From IMG/VR virus record IMGVR_UViG_3300013815_000001: a DNA stretch of 20,000 nt, one strand, 5' to 3'. The position numbers and the translations under genes are program-made. The notes below the pieces were generated by a model. That model searched no databases and was not told the origin of the DNA. It saw only the letters and a program-made list of their open reading frames with translations. The DNA is from an uncultured virus (IMG/VR IMGVR_UViG_3300013815_000001) (taxonomy: Duplodnaviria; Heunggongvirae; Uroviricota; Caudoviricetes). Positions 260-19,842 of the stretch are shown here, piece after piece (within the stretch, counting starts at the first letter, position 1; each line of letters begins with the position of its first letter).

Positions 260-1717
260 TCATTTATGTTTCCACCAGGCACACTCCCTACCGACGCCTT
301 CGCTTTTGAATACCGTATGAACGAGCGGGCCAGTTACTACCCGATCGCCAAATGACCTGGCCACAATGCCGAACGCCAGCATGTCGCCCACTGCAGCGCC
401 AGCCTGCTCTTTCTTCCAGAAGCGATAACTCTCGATGCGGTAATAAAGGCGAATGATGCCATGCGCGAACGCCATTACATCAGCGCGAGTGCCGCCCAGC
501 AGCCCAGCGTTAATCATCACATCGTTACGGTGTGCTTCAATGAACTCCTGATAGATGCGCTCCGGATGATTCTGCTTTGCCCATGCGTCAGCGTATGTTT
601 TAGGTTCGGAACCGACATAAACCTTACCGGGTTGCATTTCTCCCCACGGTGCGCGAAGCATCTCGACATCGGTACCATCCGTACACCAGACGAAACGATA
701 CTCAGGGTGATCTCTGAGATGCTGCCAGATATGCAGCCAGCGCCGGAAGTAGATATTCATCTTCACGTCAGGAACACGGCACAGATCAACGTCTGCCGGG
801 GCGGTCAGCAATTCATCCACCAGCGCGATACGTCCGCACTCCCGAAGCGAGGCTGCCCATTTGACCAGCATGTCAGGCGAGGCAGCCATTTTGGTGCCAC
901 GCTGTGGATCTGGCTGACTGGTAAGCAGAGTGGTGATTACCACGTCCAGCTGCTTCCGGTACTCAGCGTAACCGGTAAACCCGGCATCACGTCGTTCGTT
1001 GTGGATCTTTACGTTGCGTTCCACCAGCGCCTGTCTGTCGGGCTTCGGTACCGAACGTTCCACCGCTTCATGCTCATCAAGGGAGTGAATCAGCTTTTCT
1101 GAGCCAACAATATCGGCATATGCCCATGTGGTCAGTCCGGCGTTATGAATGCGAAGGGCTAAATCGCTGTGCTCGTACATTCCGCGCCCGTAAATCGGGT
1201 CGAACCCGCCAACCTTTTCAATAGCGCTGCGGTGGTAGTAGAGCATGACGCCACGCTGGCCGGTGTAGGCGATGTGTTTATCGTCTCGATACAGGACGGA
1301 AAGGTCATTGAGCTTGCGTGGTCCAGCTAAATCGAGAAACTGATAAGCCAGATGCGGCTCGGGTGAATTGATGTAAGGCAGATGCCAGTTGTCCGCGGTC
1401 GGCCAGGCATCATCGTCCCACAGGAAAAGATGTTCACAGCCAGCATCCATCAGCGCTTCAAGACTGGCGTTCTTTGATGCCACGATACCTAGTGAGGCTT
1501 CCTGCCGGATTAACCGGATGCCATCGGGTACTGCGACAGCAGGATTAGAACCATCATCTATCACCACCACCAGCGCGCCAGCAGGCAGATGATATATGTG
1601 CTGCTCAATGGCCTGCTTCAGAACATCTGGGCGATTATGGGTGCTAATCGCAATGCCGATTCTCGACGGCTGCTGGTCGGCGGGTACATATTGAACACTG
1701 TCAATAGTGACCTGCAT
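260..1717 (-). CDS. Two-domain glycosyltransferase (N-terminal GT2/GT-A plus a second GT-A-like domain)
   Basis: IGIAISTHNRP, VVVIDDGS, LFLWDDD, VGGFD..EHSDL GT2 motifs; C-terminal VWCTDGTDV and INAGLLGG. Confidence 0.9.
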   Translation of the reverse strand: MQVTIDSVQYVPADQQPSRIGIAISTHNRPDVLKQAIEQHIYHLPAGALVVVIDDGSNPAVAVPDGIRLIRQEASLGIVASKNASLEALMDAGCEHLFLWDDDAWPTADNWHLPYINSPEPHLAYQFLDLAGPRKLNDLSVLYRDDKHIAYTGQRGVMLYYHRSAIEKVGGFDPIYGRGMYEHSDLALRIHNAGLTTWAYADIVGSEKLIHSLDEHEAVERSVPKPDRQALVERNVKIHNERRDAGFTGYAEYRKQLDVVITTLLTSQPDPQRGTKMAASPDMLVKWAASLRECGRIALVDELLTAPADVDLCRVPDVKMNIYFRRWLHIWQHLRDHPEYRFVWCTDGTDVEMLRAPWGEMQPGKVYVGSEPKTYADAWAKQNHPERIYQEFIEAHRNDVMINAGLLGGTRADVMAFAHGIIRLYYRIESYRFWKKEQAGAAVGDMLAFGIVARSFGDRVVTGPLVHTVFKSEGVGRECAWWKHK

Positions 1718-4969: not shown

Positions 4970-5250
4970 TCGGGCCTCAGTACCTGAAACAGGCGCGCCA
5001 CGTTGCCCCGGGCACGGAACACGGCGGCGCAGATGATTAAGTTGATGATGACCGACGCCCAGTGTGTATGGACGTAAAAGTCGAAGGCGTAGCGGAACGG
5101 CACAGAGGCATACGCCAGGATAATCAGGTATGCCAGCCACGATGCCCACCAGCGATGCCGGGCTCCGGGTTTACGGAACAGCATCAGCCTCAACACAATG
5201 GCCGAGCACGTCGCCACGTTGGTCAGTACCAGCGGATCACTTATTACCAT
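4966..5250 (-). CDS. Phage holin-family protein (DUF754-like, 3 TM)
   Basis: Three hydrophobic segments and C-terminal RARGNVARL; lies between holin and endolysin. Confidence 0.8.
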
Positions 5251-5617
5251 TGGCTCCCCCTCTCCACCGCTGGAACCACTGCGCAGGGTCTTGCTGGCTG
5301 GCGAACGTCAGGATTTTAATCGTCAGCGCAGAGAGGATAACGGCCCCCAGTGCATCAAGCGGCTTGTCGCTGTATTCCGTCCAGCTGGCAAGCTTGGAGC
5401 CCACCAGCCCGGCGCCGTAAACGCCAGCGATGTACGAAACAACAAAATAGGCTGCGCGCCGGATCAGAGTCAGATCTGCCGCGGTGGCAACATAAAAGAC
5501 AGCACCGGCAAACGCGCCAAAAATTACGCCGTAATCTGTGCCGGTCAGCAGCCCGTAGATGCTCGCACCAGTAAGCGCAGCACCTGCCGCGACAGTTCCC
5601 GAAACCGGATCGGACAT
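5237..5617 (-). CDS. Putative phage holin
   Basis: MSDPVSGT..GTDYGVIFGAFAGAVFYV, multiple TMs, first lysis gene, GGGGG RBS. Confidence 0.85.
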   Translation of the reverse strand: MSDPVSGTVAAGAALTGASIYGLLTGTDYGVIFGAFAGAVFYVATAADLTLIRRAAYFVVSYIAGVYGAGLVGSKLASWTEYSDKPLDALGAVILSALTIKILTFASQQDPAQWFQRWRGGANGNK

Positions 5618-5664
5618 GTATCCCCCCTCTATTGCTGTGCATCCTCTCTGAGCGAGGGGAAATG

Positions 5665-5688
5665 AAAAAGGCCGCCCGGAGGCAGCCT
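5665..5688 (-). terminator. Intrinsic terminator between the 89-aa cargo gene and the holin
   Basis: AGGCTGCC-TCCG-GGCGGCCT-TTTT on the minus strand. Confidence 0.7.
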
Positions 5689-5710
5689 GTTTGAGTTTTG
5701 CTTTATTAGT

Positions 5711-5980
5711 TCAGTGAAGGTTCAGGACAGAGATCGGGTAACGGAATTCTTTCCGTTTATTATCCACACATACGACACGAACATGCCGGTTGCATATGAA
5801 CCACGTTTCATCCCGATCATTAGCCAGTATGTAATATGCATCTGACGTTTCAGATGGATTAAAACAACCCAGCACCCGATAAGCCGTTTCCATATTAAAT
5901 CCGCTCTTTAACGGCATCGGTGTGGGGCCGTTAGCAAGCTCCTGAATCCTGATATAGAGACCTTGTTCAATCCACAGCAT
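5711..5980 (-). CDS. Hypothetical cargo protein (89 aa)
   Basis: AAGGA RBS, globular-looking composition, own downstream terminator. Confidence 0.75.
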   Translation of the reverse strand: MLWIEQGLYIRIQELANGPTPMPLKSGFNMETAYRVLGCFNPSETSDAYYILANDRDETWFICNRHVRVVCVDNKRKEFRYPISVLNLH

Positions 5981-6088
5981 AGAAATCCTTGTATAGCGGG
6001 TACCTTTACAGCGTAGGTACCTGTGTACAGGTTTTCCATGTCTCCGCAGGAAATTTTTACCTGTTAAAGGTGTCCACAGGTGACATTG

Positions 6089-6168
6089 AAAACGCTCTAA
6101 TGTATGGGGCTCTGAACTGTGGATATACTACCGCCATCGTTAGAAAAGCCTCGCCATTTTTGGATCTT
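6089..6168 (-). repeat. Degenerate copy of the pR'/tR' region
   Basis: 6112-6147 matches 7651-7686 at 29/36 ungapped positions, including CCATCGTTAGAAAA. Confidence 0.8.
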
Positions 6169-6344
6169 CCCCTCCCCATTGCTGGCACTGCTGCATTGGT
6201 ACCTGCAGCCCGGCGAACGTCAGGATTTCACCGTCAGCGCAGAGAGGATAACGGCCCCAGTGCATCAAGCGGTTTGTCGCAGTATTCCGTCCAAGTGACT
6301 AGCCTGGAACCCACCTACCGTGACAGCTCCCGAAGCCAATTCAT
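6167..6344 (-). pseudogene. Decayed, internally deleted copy of the holin gene
   Basis: 6212-6293 near-identical to 5300-5383 with single-base deletions; 6312-6344 resembles the holin 5' end (5581-5617). Confidence 0.88.
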
Positions 6345-6349
6345 ACTTT

Positions 6350-6378
6350 TTGCGAAGCGTAACGACTTTTTCTATTAT
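6350..6378 (+). promoter_or_regulatory. Putative sigma70 promoter of the toxin-immunity pair
   Basis: TTGCGA-17 nt-TATTAT, upstream of GGAG RBS and ATG 6407. Confidence 0.6.
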
Positions 6379-6406
6379 CAACTCAGGGAAACTCCGGAGA
6401 AAGAAC

Positions 6407-7234
6407 ATGAGTGATGGATTACAAATTGTTATGTCGCCAGTTCAAATGGCCGCGGTAATATCAGATAAAACCGTGACTGAAGCCGAAACCATGCAAAACC
6501 GCCTGCTTGGGGGACTTGGTGTGGTAATGGGTACGGTAGAGCTGGTTGGTGCAGCGGTTCTTTGTGCCGCGCCTGAACCTACTACCTTAACTAAGGCTGC
6601 CTGTGTTGTTGTTGGCGCGCATAGTATGGATTCACTACAAGCAGCCATTGACCAGACAATTACAGGACGAGATACCCGTACAGCTGCTTACCAGCTGGCC
6701 GTGCAAACAGCCCGTCAATTTGGTGCGGATGAAGACACTGCGTTAAATATCGGTTTAACTGTTGATATTGCTGTCCCGGCTGCATTCGGTTTGGCACTTG
6801 GCGCTTCCCGGGTTGCCTACGTTCGCGCAGGCAATTTCAGGCTGGCGGAACATGAAGCCGTAAAAGGTATTAAAGCTGGTGGTCATACGATTGCGAAACA
6901 TATTGCTGTTCCTGAGGAAGAGCTACTGGCTCGCCTTGCCAGAACCCCACAAATGCAGTCCACATCGTCTTTTTTTAAGCTGGAACAGGCTGAAAAGGTT
7001 ATCAGCTCGGCGCTTAAAGCTAACCGGCTTAAAATCCTGCATTGGGCGAACCTGTCCAGAAGTGCAGAAAACACTCTGGATATTACATATAAATCAGGTT
7101 CAGCAGTTGGTTACGGTTTCCGCCAAGGAAGTCAGACTAAAGAAACCCTCTATGTAGTACGAATTGTTCTTCTCAAAAAAATGTACAACAACAAGCCTTA
7201 CTACGTCTTAACTGCCTATCCATTCATGGGATAA
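6407..7234 (+). CDS. Polymorphic-toxin-like protein with C-terminal bacterial RNase A-like (CdiA-CT Ykris-type) domain
   Basis: GGHTIAKH..LLARL..YYVLTAYP motif set; hydrophobic N-terminal part with APEPTTLTK. Confidence 0.8.
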   Translation: MSDGLQIVMSPVQMAAVISDKTVTEAETMQNRLLGGLGVVMGTVELVGAAVLCAAPEPTTLTKAACVVVGAHSMDSLQAAIDQTITGRDTRTAAYQLAVQTARQFGADEDTALNIGLTVDIAVPAAFGLALGASRVAYVRAGNFRLAEHEAVKGIKAGGHTIAKHIAVPEEELLARLARTPQMQSTSSFFKLEQAEKVISSALKANRLKILHWANLSRSAENTLDITYKSGSAVGYGFRQGSQTKETLYVVRIVLLKKMYNNKPYYVLTAYPFMG

Positions 7235-7528
7235 ATGATGCACAAAAACTACGAAACACTGAGAAAGCTGATCGTGATTTTTTTCGGTCCGGATTATCAA
7301 ATATTTGGCGAAAATATCGACGAGATTATGGCTTCATATGTTGATACAGAAAACGAATTAGCTATTGGCCATCTCAGACAACAGGCTTCGCAGGCGATTG
7401 CTATACAAAGTGATTACGAGCTTAACAGTATTATGACTGCTCTTGCAGAGAATCAATTCTCGCCAGCATTATGGGGTGAAACATGGCGTTCCTTTTTACA
7501 AAAAATACTGCTTCATCTTCCCGAATAG
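7235..7528 (+). CDS. CdiI-like cognate immunity protein
   Basis: Small acidic ORF abutting the toxin stop; FFGPDYQIFGENIDEIMASY..WRSFLQKI pattern. Confidence 0.78.
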   Translation: MMHKNYETLRKLIVIFFGPDYQIFGENIDEIMASYVDTENELAIGHLRQQASQAIAIQSDYELNSIMTALAENQFSPALWGETWRSFLQKILLHLPE

Positions 7529-7625
7529 GAAGACCTTTTCGGCATAAGTTTTATGCCTTAACAGAATATGTCATGAACCTAACTAACTGGAAACTCTGAC
7601 ATACGGAAAGTGACTATTTGCCAAT

Positions 7626-7650
7626 AAAAAAACCCGCTCATCGGCGGGTT
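7626..7650 (-). terminator. tR' late terminator
   Basis: AACCCGCCGATGAGCGGGTTTTTTT on the minus strand, just downstream of pR'. Confidence 0.85.
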
Positions 7651-7674
7651 CTGAACGGCGGATACACAATGCCC

Positions 7675-7715
7675 ATCGTTAGAAAAATCCTACCCAATTT
7701 TTTTGAATTTAGCAA
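7675..7715 (-). promoter_or_regulatory. Late promoter pR' with AACGAT pause element
   Basis: -35 TTGCTA, 17 nt, -10 TAGGAT, then AACGATGGG as at the lambda pR' start; directly downstream of Q. Confidence 0.85.
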
Positions 7716-7747
7716 GCATCGTGTCGCTAAAATATTTAATCAGGCTT

Positions 7748-8506
7748 CTAACGTGTGATTTCGCGCAGCATCTTTTCCGCGAATGCTTCTTCCTGCCAGC
7801 ATTTCGTCACCAGCAGGTTAATGACGTCAGCAAAACCGCTGTACCACTGGTAATCCGTCATATCAGGCACCAGAACCTGCACCTGACGGCGCGCCAGAGT
7901 GGTGGGCAGACGTGCAAACCCTTTACCACCACATCGCTCACACAGCTTTTGCACCGGCACGCCGTGTAACTCGGTACGCTTACGGTCGAGCGCCGTTCCC
8001 CGTCCCGAGCAGTCCCGGCAGGCCGTACTGATTACCCCCTTCCCACCGCAGTGCTTACAGAGTTCTTCAACTTCCTCTACGCGAATTGTCGCATCCACGC
8101 CTTTCACGCCAGGATGCTTCACCACTTCCCGACGCACGCGCTTAACCCCTTTTCCTTCGCAGTGATGGCATTCGCAGCTGCTGGCTGCCGAGCGCGCATA
8201 GTCGCTGTAGGCGAACTGAGCCAGACAAAGGGCCATTTCCGCGCGCGCGCGCTCACCGAGTTTTTTCATTACGCCGTTATTTAGCGCGAGCGCATATTTA
8301 ACCAGGCCATCAATAGCGGGCTGCGGATCCTGAATACCCATTTTGGCGAGGAAGAGGTTGAACCCCAGCGCCGCCTTAGACTGGACGAGACCCTGTGCGG
8401 CCATTACATCCGAGATGGTCAGCGCGGCGCTGCCGGTGGCTGGTGTCTCATCATTGAGTTTTGGTGATTTCGGGGAATAGAACTTTGGTAAGGCTTCGAG
8501 GTTCAT
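7748..8506 (-). CDS. Q: Late antitermination protein Q (Zn-finger type)
   Basis: MNLEALPKFYSPKS, LTISDVMAAQG, repeated CxxCxGxG motifs; precedes pR'. Confidence 0.9.
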   Translation of the reverse strand: MNLEALPKFYSPKSPKLNDETPATGSAALTISDVMAAQGLVQSKAALGFNLFLAKMGIQDPQPAIDGLVKYALALNNGVMKKLGERARAEMALCLAQFAYSDYARSAASSCECHHCEGKGVKRVRREVVKHPGVKGVDATIRVEEVEELCKHCGGKGVISTACRDCSGRGTALDRKRTELHGVPVQKLCERCGGKGFARLPTTLARRQVQVLVPDMTDYQWYSGFADVINLLVTKCWQEEAFAEKMLREITR

Positions 8507-16874: not shown

Positions 16875-17081
16875 ATGCTGAACCTCGATTGTGTTCCCAT
16901 CTCAACTTATTGCAAAGAAACTGGCGAGACGCCTGATGCCATAACCAAACGTGTACAACGAGGCGTTTGGCGTGAAGGCGTTCAAGTGCTGAAGGTGGAA
17001 GGCGTTAAGGAAAGATGGATTGATCTTAATGAGGTTGCTAAATGGGCAAGACAGAGCTGCCAAAACTCCCGCGCGGCGTGA
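16875..17081 (+). CDS. xis: Excisionase
   Basis: Small wHTH-like protein (GVWREG..ERWIDLNEVAKWA) overlapping the int start; GGAGG RBS. Confidence 0.85.
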   Translation: MLNLDCVPISTYCKETGETPDAITKRVQRGVWREGVQVLKVEGVKERWIDLNEVAKWARQSCQNSRAA

Positions 17082-18253
17082 CCGTAAGAAAACACAGCCA
17101 GGGAGAGACAATTAATATTACTTTCACCTATAGAGGAGTTAAGTGCCGTGAGCCGCTCTCTAATCTTGAAGTGAACAGTAAGAACCTTAAATACGCCGAG
17201 CGAACCCTCGGCGAAATTTATAATAAAATTGAGCGCGGGACGTTCGTTTACGCTGAATACTTCCCGCGATCAGCGCGCCTGAAGATATTCGGAAATGCAG
17301 CTGCTGGTAAAACCGTCAAGATGTACCTGGACGAGTATATTGGCATTTGTGAAACACGAAAATTATCACCTTCGACTATCGGCGGTTATAAAAAATGCCG
17401 TAGCGCGCTGGCAGCCCTTCATTCATTGCCTGCAAGCGAGCTTACGCCGGCAGCAATGAAAGCATGGATCCAAAGCCGCACCACCACGCTAAAAACAATT
17501 CGTAATCAACTTTCTTTCCTGCGCTCAGCGCTTGATGAGGCTGTAACAGATGGCGTGCTCCAACTCAACCCGGTATCACTGGTAACTGCATCGCGGTATC
17601 AAAGCGATAAATCGACTGCTGACAGCGACTATATTGTCGATCCGCTTTCACCAGCAGAAATAGATGCCCTCCTATCCTCTGCCGGTAATAAGCAGTGGGA
17701 AAACCTGTTTATGTTCGCTATCCAGACAGGTTTACGCAGTTCAGAATTGTGCGCGCTGCGCTGGCGCGATATCGACTTCATTGGGAAAACTGCGCATGTT
17801 CAGAACGCGAGTGTAGTTGGCGTTATTAAGGGGACGAAAACAAAGGCAGGCACACGCAAAGTAGAACTTAACGATGTGGCGATGACAGTGTTAGCTAATC
17901 AGAAAACTTTCACCTTCATGAAAGATGCGACTATTTTTGAGGATCCGAAAACGAATAAGCCGTGGGCCAGCGCAGATGCGATCCGCAAAAAGGCCTGGGT
18001 CCCAACTTTGCGTAAAGCGGGGATCAGGTACCGCAACCCATACCAGACCCGGCATACATTTGCGACGCGCCACATCAGCCAAGGGGCAAACCTTTTCTGG
18101 CTCGCCGGGCAGATGGGGCATAAAGGACCCGAGATGCTTTTCAGACACTACGGTAGCTACCTCAAAGAATATGATGGTAAGGCGGCTATTGTGAAAAATA
18201 CAAGGAAAACACCTCCCATGACTCAAAAATCTGATGCTACCCTTAAGGTATGA
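17042..18253 (+). CDS. int: Tyrosine integrase with N-terminal arm-binding domain
   Basis: TGLRSSEL, KTKAG, YQTRHTFA, QMGH, HY catalytic motifs. Confidence 0.95.
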   Translation: MGKTELPKLPRGVTVRKHSQGETINITFTYRGVKCREPLSNLEVNSKNLKYAERTLGEIYNKIERGTFVYAEYFPRSARLKIFGNAAAGKTVKMYLDEYIGICETRKLSPSTIGGYKKCRSALAALHSLPASELTPAAMKAWIQSRTTTLKTIRNQLSFLRSALDEAVTDGVLQLNPVSLVTASRYQSDKSTADSDYIVDPLSPAEIDALLSSAGNKQWENLFMFAIQTGLRSSELCALRWRDIDFIGKTAHVQNASVVGVIKGTKTKAGTRKVELNDVAMTVLANQKTFTFMKDATIFEDPKTNKPWASADAIRKKAWVPTLRKAGIRYRNPYQTRHTFATRHISQGANLFWLAGQMGHKGPEMLFRHYGSYLKEYDGKAAIVKNTRKTPPMTQKSDATLKV

Positions 18254-18417: not shown

Positions 18418-18447
18418 TTGAAAAAATGTGTCATAACCTGCTATAGT
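18418..18447 (+). promoter_or_regulatory. Putative sigma70 promoter of the peptide-DUF4760 unit
   Basis: TTGAAA-18 nt-TATAGT with extended -10 TG. Confidence 0.55.
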
Positions 18448-18518
18448 TGGCCCATAAAGCAATGGACAAATCAAAATTCATTAATTTTCAAGTGGATAGG
18501 AAACTGGAGGAATCGTAC

Positions 18519-18557
18519 ATGGCTCATTCTCTTAGCGTAGGTTTCGGCGAAGGCTAA
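18519..18557 (+). CDS. 12-aa peptide MAHSLSVGFGEG (31 aa if started at ATG 18462)
   Basis: GGAGG at 18506-18510, 8 nt before the ATG; followed by a hairpin. Confidence 0.55.
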   Translation: MAHSLSVGFGEG

Positions 18558-18585
18558 CCATCCGTCAAAAAATCGTTATGCAAGT

Positions 18586-18609
18586 AGACCTCCGTTTAGG
18601 GGGTCTTTT
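18586..18609 (+). terminator. Terminator/attenuator-like hairpin between peptide and DUF4760 gene
   Basis: AGACCTCC-GTTTA-GGGGGTCT-TTT. Confidence 0.55.
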
Positions 18610-18628
18610 GCTATGGGGGACAGAAAAA

Positions 18629-19555
18629 GTGGCGTCAAGAATGGTTATAATTACGTGCACGTTGTTTGTAATTATGATGTTAATCAGGGGCCTATACACT
18701 TATGCTTTTCCAGGCACAATCCCATTCAAAATGGACATTGTTGATTTCCTGATTGTTGCTTCAGGGGCCGGAAGCTTAGTATCATCAGTTTTTTGCTTCA
18801 TAAGAGCAAGATACCCGGATACTGTTGACTTTCTTCCTATTTTTAGTAGCGTCTGTTATGGCATTATATTGGCTGGATATGCAATACTGAGATACTATCC
18901 TACCTACCAAACTTCGCTTTCTATAATGGTTACCGGAATGCTTGTTGGTATGGGATGGTGGATACAATGTATAACATCTGCTGCAAACTCCCGCCGATCA
19001 CATACACTAAATATAATAATCAACACTCGTACTAGTCCGGAATATCAAAAACAACTACGTAATAGCACGAAATTTTATCGTGGCATGCGCTATGTTCCCC
19101 AAGAACTTTCTGAGTGGCGTTGCAACCCAGATAAAGATGAATATAAGAACATACTTGTGCCAGACGAATATCGAGATGCTATTAACGGGCTACTTTACAT
19201 CCTTAATTATTTCGAGTTTTTAGCTCAAGGCATTAAATTCAGAGATCTCGATGATAAATTGTTGAAAGAGTGCTTTTCTAGCTTTCTGAAAGGAATCGAA
19301 AGGAGAGGCTTTCATATGATTATTGAATCACAAAAACAAGATCGTCTTGCGTTTGAAGGCATTATTGAACTATCAAAAAAATGGAATGGTTCCTCTTTTG
19401 TAGAGATGCATAGGTCAAATCCGAACACAAGCGAGTTAGGTATTCCCTATCCTTCTAATGAAATAATTGAACGCATGATCGCCGGCAGGCCCTTGATTGA
19501 CTTGGAACCGGCTATAGTTTCTACACAAGAACAGGCCGGGCAGCCAGCCAGCTGA
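18629..19555 (+). CDS. Membrane protein with 4 N-terminal TMs and DUF4760-like C-terminal domain (probable GTG start)
   Basis: Four hydrophobic segments; RRSHTLNII, ILNYFEFLAQGIK..LDDKLLK..FEGIIELSKKW; GGGGGA RBS; low GC. Confidence 0.78.
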   Translation: MASRMVIITCTLFVIMMLIRGLYTYAFPGTIPFKMDIVDFLIVASGAGSLVSSVFCFIRARYPDTVDFLPIFSSVCYGIILAGYAILRYYPTYQTSLSIMVTGMLVGMGWWIQCITSAANSRRSHTLNIIINTRTSPEYQKQLRNSTKFYRGMRYVPQELSEWRCNPDKDEYKNILVPDEYRDAINGLLYILNYFEFLAQGIKFRDLDDKLLKECFSSFLKGIERRGFHMIIESQKQDRLAFEGIIELSKKWNGSSFVEMHRSNPNTSELGIPYPSNEIIERMIAGRPLIDLEPAIVSTQEQAGQPAS

Positions 19556-19650
19556 ATTGAAAAATGTATAGAAAAGCCGCCGCGAAAGAGCCGCGTACAA
19601 ATGAATGAAAAATAATATGAATTTATTCAATAAGTTACATTAATAAAGAG

Positions 19651-19678
19651 GCGGGTTCAACTCCCGCCAGCTCCACCA
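19651..19678 (+). repeat. att site: displaced 3' end of tmRNA (ssrA)
   Basis: GCGGGTTCAACTCCCGCCAGCTCCACCA equals the enterobacterial tmRNA T-arm/acceptor end; upstream sequence is not tmRNA. Confidence 0.9.
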
Positions 19679-19712
19679 CTTTTTAGTTGTTTGAAGTACA
19701 ATGAAGTCTACT

Positions 19713-19746
19713 AAGCCCGCACAGCACAAGCTCTGCGGGCTTTTTT
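19713..19746 (+). terminator. Terminator of the kind following ssrA in CP4-57-like islands
   Basis: AAGCCCGCA...TGCGGGCTTTTTT. Confidence 0.75.
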
Positions 19747-19842
19747 ACGTCTATTGTCGTCCAGTGAGAATTGCTGAGAACTATAAGTTATGGCACCCTG
19801 AATGGGACCCTCTAAGATGGGTCCAAAAACCGAGGGTCCCAA

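Follow-up and report, generated by a model that had tools for sequence, protein, structure and literature searches.

A tiny peptide gene travels with DUF4760 membrane protein genes in prophages and stands alone in lytic phages, suggesting a peptide-controlled conflict system

The subject of this study is a small cassette on a 20,000-nucleotide (nt) stretch of DNA from an uncultured virus of the Caudoviricetes (IMG/VR record IMGVR_UViG_3300013815_000001); the whole stretch is termed the window herein. The cassette consists of a 12-codon peptide gene and a gene for a membrane protein of the DUF4760 family, with an intrinsic terminator between the two, and it is located between the integrase gene (int) and the phage attachment site (att). 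Conservation of this cassette, together with solo copies of the peptide gene in lytic phages, suggests a so far undescribed peptide-controlled conflict system between phages and bacteria. The features of the cassette, followed by those at its borders, are as follows.

18418..18447, plus strand: sigma-70 promoter with -35 TTGAAA (18418-18423), an 18-nt spacer and an extended -10 (TG, one base, TATAGT; 18439-18447)
18448..18518, plus strand: 5' leader with a conserved TTTTCAA..TTAA element and a GGAGG ribosome-binding site (18506-18510)
18519..18557, plus strand: 12-codon peptide gene with the C-terminal core hydrophobic-x-V-G-F-G-E-G, then TAA
18586..18612, plus strand: intrinsic terminator, an 8-pair hairpin (18586-18606) followed by TTTTGCT
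18615..18620, plus strand: ribosome-binding site GGGGGA of the DUF4760 gene, 8 nt upstream of the GTG
18629..19555, plus strand: DUF4760 membrane protein gene (308 amino acids) with GTG at 18629 and stop at 19553-19555, assigned by Pfam and by the aligned start
17042..18253, plus strand: tyrosine integrase (Pfam Arm-DNA-bind_2 and Phage_integrase), the left edge of the cargo slot
19551..19678, plus strand: copy of the 3' end of transfer-messenger RNA (tmRNA; ssrA), which is the prophage attachment site (Rfam RF00023, partial) and the right edge of the cargo slot
16875-17081: excisionase, left of the integrase

With a size of about 1.1 kb, the unit is a self-contained two-gene cassette that has its own constitutive promoter and belongs to the cargo of temperate phages. 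An earlier note, made by a model from the letters alone, had described this layout, and the promoter, the GGAGG, the 12-codon open reading frame (ORF), the hairpin, the second ribosome-binding site and the GTG are each found at the position that it gave. It had also called the membrane protein gene low in GC, which agrees with a GC content of 0.36 to 0.41 within the module versus 0.48 to 0.50 in int and the excisionase gene (xis), and it had assigned the unit to the cargo slot between int and att. That assignment stands, because int ends to the left of the cassette and the tmRNA 3'-end copy adjoins it on the right. The GGAGG is located 8 nt ahead of the ATG of the peptide gene, and the terminator hairpin, with its 8 pairs and short T-run, begins 28 nt past the stop codon.

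A consensus scan scored the promoter at 10/12 plus the TG. The scan alone was not significant in the window (4 sites observed versus 5.0 expected); however, the -35 TTG and the TGnTATnnT at fixed spacing are invariant in 10/10 aligned loci from three kinds of context, and we therefore regard the cassette promoter as genuine. Transcription would then start at about 18454. The TTTTCAA..TTAA leader element (window 18470-18500), which lies between the -10 and the ribosome-binding site, is conserved among the enteric cassettes. In an Rfam scan of the region, no match to the leader was obtained; the only hits were the partial 3' end of tmRNA and, farther downstream, an IsrM match below the threshold. 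The program-made ORF list places the DUF4760 start at an ATG at 18578, which would read through the hairpin. Since the homologues start at the residue that aligns with the GTG at 18629, we assign the protein 308 residues.

A protein search yielded 95 relatives of the DUF4760 protein, ranging from 91% to 29% identity, from Enterobacterales, Pseudomonas, Shewanella and Halomonas, and the DNA around relatives was obtained for 19 loci from species-representative genomes and 38 loci from IMG/VR. The subfamily with four transmembrane (TM) helices, termed 4-TM here, is represented by 48 loci including the window, four of which (L002, L046, L054 and L056) come without upstream DNA. The remaining 44 loci are assessable and, given the redundancy of IMG/VR, collapse to 24 distinct sequences, on which the sequence statistics below are based. 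A short ORF ending in G-x-G-x-G-stop is present within 600 nt upstream of the DUF4760 gene in 44/44 loci, and its proximal ATG is always preceded by a strong ribosome-binding site. A hairpin with a T-run follows the tiny ORF in 24/24 distinct relatives (core energies of -10.5 to -17.2 kcal/mol), and the terminator is followed by a ribosome-binding site and then the DUF4760 start in all of them. ORF and terminator are kept among 4-TM loci down to about 49% protein identity. The earlier note had mentioned short ORFs ending in G-aromatic-G-E-G ahead of other DUF4760 genes and had proposed a look for such ORFs and hairpins in the DNA upstream of homologues; its statement was borne out by every assessable 4-TM locus for the ORF and every distinct one for the hairpin, and the pairing turned out to be family-wide.

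The peptides of the 4-TM subfamily have 9 to 17 residues with the consensus hydrophobic-x-[VI]-G-[FYV]-G-E-G; at one Pseudomonas locus, G-T-G-A-G replaces G-[FYV]-G-E-G. In Enterobacter sp. EA-1 (L009, 3880-3920), the ATG of the tiny ORF falls 1 nt out of frame at an A-run; this may reflect an error in sequencing or assembly, or the peptide gene may be naturally knocked out. The RefSeq genome of Escherichia coli O55:H7 CB9615 has the same layout, with the tiny ORF lying unannotated between int and the DUF4760 coding sequence, and no annotation of the tiny ORF was present in any DUF4760 record examined. Of 5,426 complete E. coli genomes, 119 (about 2%) have related DUF4760 genes, O55:H7 and O157:H7 strains among them. 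Neither a degenerate DNA pattern for the peptide core nor its reversed control had a match in a sample of 401 genomes of the order (0 each).

The pattern of conservation shows that the peptide itself is under selection. In the three Gly codons, positions 1 and 2 have zero entropy and position 3 has 0.9 to 1.1 bits; Phe is written as TTC and TTT and Tyr as TAC and TAT; and a T invariably occupies the middle of the codon two before [VI], which makes the residue there hydrophobic in every case. Conservation ends at the stop codon, for which TAA, TAG and TGA are all used, and entropy leaps to 1.5 to 1.9 bits at each position directly past it. Conservation that has a three-base period and stops at the stop codon is the mark of a translated and constrained peptide rather than of an RNA motif. 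A chance ORF was rejected on the basis of the short ORF in 44/44 loci and the codon-periodic conservation. Attenuation by glycine starvation was likewise rejected, given that the F/Y, E and hydrophobic positions are also conserved and that four different Gly codons are used.

The pairing extends to distant DUF4760 subfamilies. Ten distant loci from the genome set, which are 19 to 58% identical to one another and 22 to 31% identical to the window protein, all (10/10) have a tiny ORF with a ribosome-binding site directly upstream of the called start or overlapping it. Five of these ORFs end in E-G-[DV]-G-[YV]-A and one in E-G-I-G-G-A, two alphaproteobacterial ones end in D-G-F-P-G-G and E-G-M-V-G-G, and the last two end in I-G-I-E-E and, without kin, in P-T-S-V. 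Among 15 further loci from metagenomes and IMG/VR, 11 have a tiny ORF with a ribosome-binding site, whereas L139, L142, L145 and L178 have too little upstream DNA or no candidate tiny ORF. The endings in this second group are E-G-S-G-Y-A, D-G-I-G-G-A (two), E-G-I-G-G-A, E-G-T-G-I-A (two), E-G-D-G-Y-A, E-G-G-G-K-G, E-G-H-G-F-G, E-G-E-G-L-G-A-K-A-V and a second I-G-I-E-E, which confirms that class. The distant endings are thus mostly G-x-G-x-[GA], and a hairpin with a T-run stands behind most of the distant tiny ORFs. A tiny ORF with a Gly-rich, acidic C terminus is therefore an old and general companion of DUF4760, with a sequence class that changes with the protein subfamily. In subfamilies with one TM helix (1-TM), a GCCCAGC..GCTGGGC hairpin with a T-run is located inside the called N terminus, where it is read as K-P-S-x-x-L-G-F (L011 3817-3900, L013, L015, L019, L119-L122 and L144). 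Because the hairpin falls within the annotated N terminus, the annotated 1-TM starts are doubtful: either the true start lies downstream of the hairpin or a terminator lies within the first 20 codons.

Several positions within phage and prophage genomes harbor the cassette. It occupies the slot behind the integrase gene, beside att or a host gene, in the window and in L001, L020, L021, L023, L027, L036 and L051; the gap between Q and the holin gene, on the opposite strand, in L041 and L044; and a position beside P2-like portal and terminase genes in L006. The Pseudomonas cassettes L004 and L048 are located near umuC and SRAP genes. The int-att interval, the Q-holin gap and the flank of the P2-like portal and terminase genes are classic accessory slots, into which the cassette brings its own promoter and terminator. 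In the window itself, the gap between Q and the lysis genes (5150-7750) holds two plus-strand ORFs that face the lysis genes, at 6320-7234 (304 amino acids, with a weak match to PHROG 25038) and 7235-7528 (97 amino acids); these may be another cargo unit, in a slot equal to that of the DUF4760 cassettes of L041 and L044.

The peptide gene also occurs without DUF4760. A degenerate pattern for the core detected 60 loci in IMG/VR, of which 32 adjoin a DUF4760 gene and 28 do not; the search was defined by the core motif, so that the frequency of other peptide classes is outside its reach. Thirteen of the 28 loci, from six sequence families, are ORFs of 7 to 10 codons with a strong ribosome-binding site that encode M-[VI]-G-[FY]-G-E-G or this core extended by one to three residues, and these are termed orphan ORFs herein. 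Two others are an 11-codon ORF in T4-like contigs, and one is the C terminus of a 97-residue protein. PF15956, the Pfam model of DUF4760, was not matched in six complete phage genomes (CheckV 100%) with an orphan ORF, while the positive control detected 3/3 carriers, and a search for a tyrosine integrase in five of the six found none. The relatives of the orphan-bearing genomes are phages of Enterobacteriaceae: Klebsiella Drulisvirus, Enterobacter phage phiKDA1, the group of Klebsiella phage vB_KpnS_ZX4, and the Klebsiella phages VLCpiS11a and 37P2. In phiKDA1, which is 100% identical to L092, the orphan ORF is located in the early region. The Drulisvirus orphan, M-V-G-Y-G-E-G (L083 1288-1321, equal to Klebsiella phage myPSH1235; also L072, L109 and L117), is an accessory insert between two early genes, made up of seven codons behind an additional phage promoter copy and a leader that opens with GGGAGG. 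Without annotation, this insert is found in 16 GenBank records; SU503, for which the authors annotated a single promoter, lacks it. In the ZX4-like group, the orphan ORF is the last in its operon and thus has nothing downstream to regulate, since a terminator follows 3 nt past its stop codon and convergent lysis genes lie beyond.

The motif is also part of longer phage proteins. The protein of 97 residues is a member of the T5 ORF053/T5.055 family, the tails of which are composed of repeated modules; [VI]-G-[FYW]-G-E-G is found there both internally and terminally, beside acidic-aromatic modules. These proteins (L087 1028-1321) have a Cys-rich core, and their tail modules also include D-E-F-D-G-F and E-D-E-R-P-D-L. 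T4-like contigs L064 and L094 have 8-codon ORFs that encode acidic-aromatic modules alone. The company of acidic-aromatic modules in the tails of T5-family and T4-like small proteins, and the presence of the motif in unrelated lytic lineages that infect Enterobacteriaceae, would fit a linear motif that binds a conserved host protein. Phages would hijack this factor, the prophage peptide would be a competitive decoy against superinfecting phages, and DUF4760 would be separate or accessory. We consider this very unlikely: the linkage to DUF4760 is strict and family-wide, with its own peptide class for each subfamily, which a decoy for a host protein only would not need, and no host target is known.

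The partner of the peptide gene is a protein of a family without an assigned function. DUF4760 (PF15956) is the only Pfam match in the product of the 18629..19555 gene (53.2 bits versus a gathering cut-off of 25, E value of 4.7e-14, residues 123-269 of the ATG-started reading); the protein also matches PHROG 8946 (E value of 6.9e-87) and PHROG 21275, and all three are families of unknown function. NCBIfam gave 0 families for it, and a search of the ESM Atlas returned DUF4760 clusters only. AlphaFold modeled the protein with a predicted local distance difference test (pLDDT) score of 86.8 for the whole chain and 91.7 for the domain alone. Four TM helices are seen in the model, the last of which has an invariant G-W-W-I-Q and extends into a helical domain of ~190 residues. 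The positive-inside rule predicts a cytoplasmic location for both termini, the conserved TM2-TM3 loop and the large domain, a placement that would make the large domain accessible to a cytoplasmic peptide.

Foldseek searches with the whole and the domain-only models returned nothing at an E value of ≤0.001, and the best VIA Z scores, 7.6 (whole) and 7.3 (domain), are inside the noise range for helical proteins. Both programs rank the EP domains of the plant proteins EDS1, PAD4 and SAG101 first for the domain model (window 18971-19504). In VIA, the EP domain of PAD4/EDS1 reached a Z score of 7.3 with a root mean square deviation of 3.7 over 120 residues, followed by scores of 6.8 and 5.6, and unrelated GST C-terminal domains reached ≤5.5. 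EP domains bind small molecules. We treat this model-based resemblance as a weak lead. A complex prediction for the peptide with the full DUF4760 protein gave a score of 0.00, a 12-residue chain being outside the calibration of the tool.

A membrane protein with an N-terminal four-TM bundle could also be a modifying or exporting factor. The peptide would then be a precursor or cargo of DUF4760 that acts outside the cell as a signal or antibacterial compound, with an excess of substrate as in microcin C. The architecture matches mccA-terminator-mccB, and the conserved small residue at the C terminus could be a site of modification. We find this quite unlikely, as Pfam identifies DUF4760 only and the cassette holds no adenylyltransferase, peptidase, ABC transporter or other enzyme family; moreover, the peptide has no signal sequence, and the orphans in lytic phages have no visible partner for export or maturation.

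Our preferred reading, to which we assign a probability of roughly 45%, is a peptide that partners the DUF4760 membrane protein in trans. It is the most economical one because it covers selection at the level of the peptide, the deep linkage to DUF4760, the solo copies in lytic phages and the motif inside proteins. Conservation of two adjacent genes as a pair on mobile elements, by which toxin-antitoxin systems are recognized, extends over 44/44 4-TM loci and the distant subfamilies. The tiny ORF would be translated into a peptide of 7 to 17 residues with a conserved C-terminal core and an obligate DUF4760 partner. The terminator would end most transcripts after the tiny ORF, leaving DUF4760 to be made only from read-through, and the outcome would be a large excess of the peptide over the 4-TM protein. 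Such an excess is plausible by analogy with mccA-mccB, and the shortness of the T-run in the window is in keeping with a leaky terminator. The peptide would then act on the cytoplasmic helical domain. Judging from the order of the genes, the predicted excess, the location in cargo slots and the placement of orphans in early regions, its likeliest role would be that of a short-lived antidote that holds a membrane effector inactive. When an infecting phage shuts off host expression, the supply of peptide would end, the effector would act, and the infection would be aborted or excluded; lytic phages with the peptide gene alone would supply the antidote themselves. This complete chain, from a labile peptide antidote of a membrane effector to its mimics in lytic phages, is a tentative proposal and, with all its steps taken together, rather unlikely.

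Several points weigh against a trans-acting peptide. Peptide excess, toxicity, binding and defense are each steps that we infer. A PADLOC-DB 2.0 search of the DUF4760 protein gave 0 families at E values up to 1, and no known toxin or pore fold was recognized in the fold searches of its models. Shared descent alone could explain why the peptide classes follow the DUF4760 subfamilies. Among the 28 pattern loci without DUF4760, nine have the motif in another frame of a longer ORF or without a start codon, and these probably reflect chance; three more are probably by-products, being the ends of longer ORFs, the last codons of which double as the ribosome-binding site of the next gene. Furthermore, Glu is invariably GAA (23/23) and the final Gly invariably GGY (24/24), which hints at an extra constraint at the RNA level. 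The conserved residues are those that adjoin the stop codon, as in arrest peptides, and the geometry is that of a leader attenuator, with 20 to 60 nt between the terminator and the gene, too little space for a second promoter.

The last three points are also those that favor a leader peptide acting in cis. The nascent [VI]-G-[FY]-G-E-G would stall the ribosome at the stop codon, perhaps on a ligand or under translation stress, and would thereby set terminator formation and turn DUF4760 on or off. The order of promoter, strong ribosome-binding site, short ORF, intrinsic terminator (intervening in 24/24 loci) and ribosome-binding site of the gene is the one by which attenuators are recognized, and conservation is packed into the six codons that precede the stop, a feature shared with short arrest peptides. 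In the mcc operon, ribosome binding to the tiny ORF governs termination (PMC4231749). For the antiterminator that such a mechanism should conserve, the best duplex between the region from ribosome-binding site to stop and the 5' arm of the terminator was compared with composition-matched shuffles. This test covers simple duplexes, with tertiary contacts and mcc-like ribosome-dependent effects outside its reach, and within that scope only 1/24 distinct loci did better than the shuffles, so that no conserved antiterminator was found. Pairing of the Shine-Dalgarno sequence with a CCTCC arm of the terminator as anti-Shine-Dalgarno sequence, although attractive by eye, was no better than in shuffled sequence and was rejected. 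Between stop codon and hairpin, the loci have anywhere from 7 to 47 nt, and, with the missing antiterminator duplex, this leaves the classical attenuator signature absent.

All three stop codons occur, orphan ORFs are located at operon ends that face convergent genes or behind promoters of phage RNA polymerases, in phages without DUF4760, and the motif is also found inside longer proteins, far from stop codons. A leader acting in cis accounts for the geometry and the GAA and GGY invariance but not for the orphan copies, and we regard it as unlikely, though worth keeping in view. The earlier note had offered three roles for the peptide, namely, a labile inhibitor or ligand of a membrane effector, a signaling peptide, and an arrest peptide that controls attenuation. 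Of these, the inhibitor or ligand acting in trans is now favored over the arrest peptide, on account of the missing conserved antiterminator, the variable spacing, the orphans without DUF4760 and the motif within proteins.

The remainder of the window is that of a lambdoid prophage, with genes for CI, a Cro-like protein, CII, an O-like protein, RusA, Q, endolysin, Rz and Ant and with a glycosyltransferase moron. The latter, a protein of 485 amino acids on the left side of the window (260-1717, minus strand; PHROG 1579, moron category), is probably a lysogenic-conversion gene. The tmRNA 3'-end copy is a partial match to RF00023 with 22 bits, under the gathering score, and ARAGORN did not find a whole tmRNA gene in the window. 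Just past it are the IsrM-like match (19669-19746, 56.6 bits versus a gathering score of 376) and a terminator-like hairpin (19728-19750). When the cassette region was used for a megablast search of E. coli, the att end alone was matched, and a search mode for distant matches was needed to detect relatives. Because the E. coli matches fall on that end of the query, the right-end DNA is shared att-flank DNA.

A search of the full-text literature outside subscription journals returned no account of the tiny ORF, of its association with DUF4760 or of orphan copies in phages; DUF4760 itself is mentioned in one paper, on Serratia genomic islands. DUF4760 is a widespread family of unknown function that occurs in prophages, and if every member has a tiny gene and a terminator, its functional unit is misannotated and experiments on the family gain a concrete point of entry. 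If the peptide does act in trans, genes of seven codons are real players in the conflict between phage and host, and gene callers that drop ORFs under about 30 codons miss both a component of defense and a counter-defense. It is possible, if doubtful at this stage, that the cassette represents a new class of conflict system, ancient and family-wide, in which a labile peptide antidote as short as seven residues (formyl-Met and a six-residue core) is matched with a DUF4760 effector and is counter-supplied by phages. In that case, virulent phages of Enterobacteriaceae (T7-like, siphoviral, T4-like and T5-like) would overcome the effector by means of the same peptide or of the motif on protein tails, and the peptide gene would be both the smallest antitoxin and the smallest counter-defense gene known, each missed by routine annotation.

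Of the known systems, the microcin C operon is similar in architecture. In mccA-mccB, a 7-codon ORF and an intergenic intrinsic terminator give rise to a short transcript that is bound by ribosomes, highly stable and in excess of read-through by about 20:1, and the peptide thereby greatly exceeds the downstream proteins (Zukher et al. 2014, PMC4231749). The DUF4760 cassette shares with this operon the single promoter, the very strong ribosome-binding site, the tiny ORF and the intergenic terminator; downstream genes are expressed by read-through only in mcc, and the same is predicted for the cassette. The peptide core is unrelated to MccA. An MccB-type enzyme, by which microcin C clusters are recognized, was not found, the downstream gene being DUF4760 only and the next feature the att site. 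Nor are there further biosynthetic or immunity genes as in microcin C; the sole partner is the DUF4760 membrane protein.

The peptide core (18537-18554) resembles T-[VI]-G-[YF]-G-[DE], which we take to be the filter signature of K+ channels, and we attach no weight to this. In such channels, the filter motif is placed between a pore helix and an inner TM helix of one chain. Membership in a K+ channel pore was rejected, as the peptide is a separate product of 7 to 17 residues and a terminator lies between it and the membrane protein.

Leader attenuators and arrest peptides include those of the trpL/pheL type and the Erm, Cat, MsrD and TnaC leaders. The cassette is like these in having a short ORF and a terminator before the gene and conserved C-terminal residues at the would-be ribosome stop, and it is unlike them in lacking a conserved antiterminator, in its variable spacing, in the solo tiny ORFs of phages and in the motif inside proteins.

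Toxin-antitoxin and other defense systems differ in that the DUF4760 protein matches no PADLOC model, and we know of no antitoxin that is a peptide of 7 to 17 residues. Antitoxin mimics encoded by phages are exemplified by T4 Dmd, which acts against RnlA/LsoA. With toxin-antitoxin and abortive-infection pairs, the cassette has in common co-transcribed, strictly linked genes, a location in prophage slots, a predicted excess of the upstream product, and a small partner that is found alone in lytic phages.

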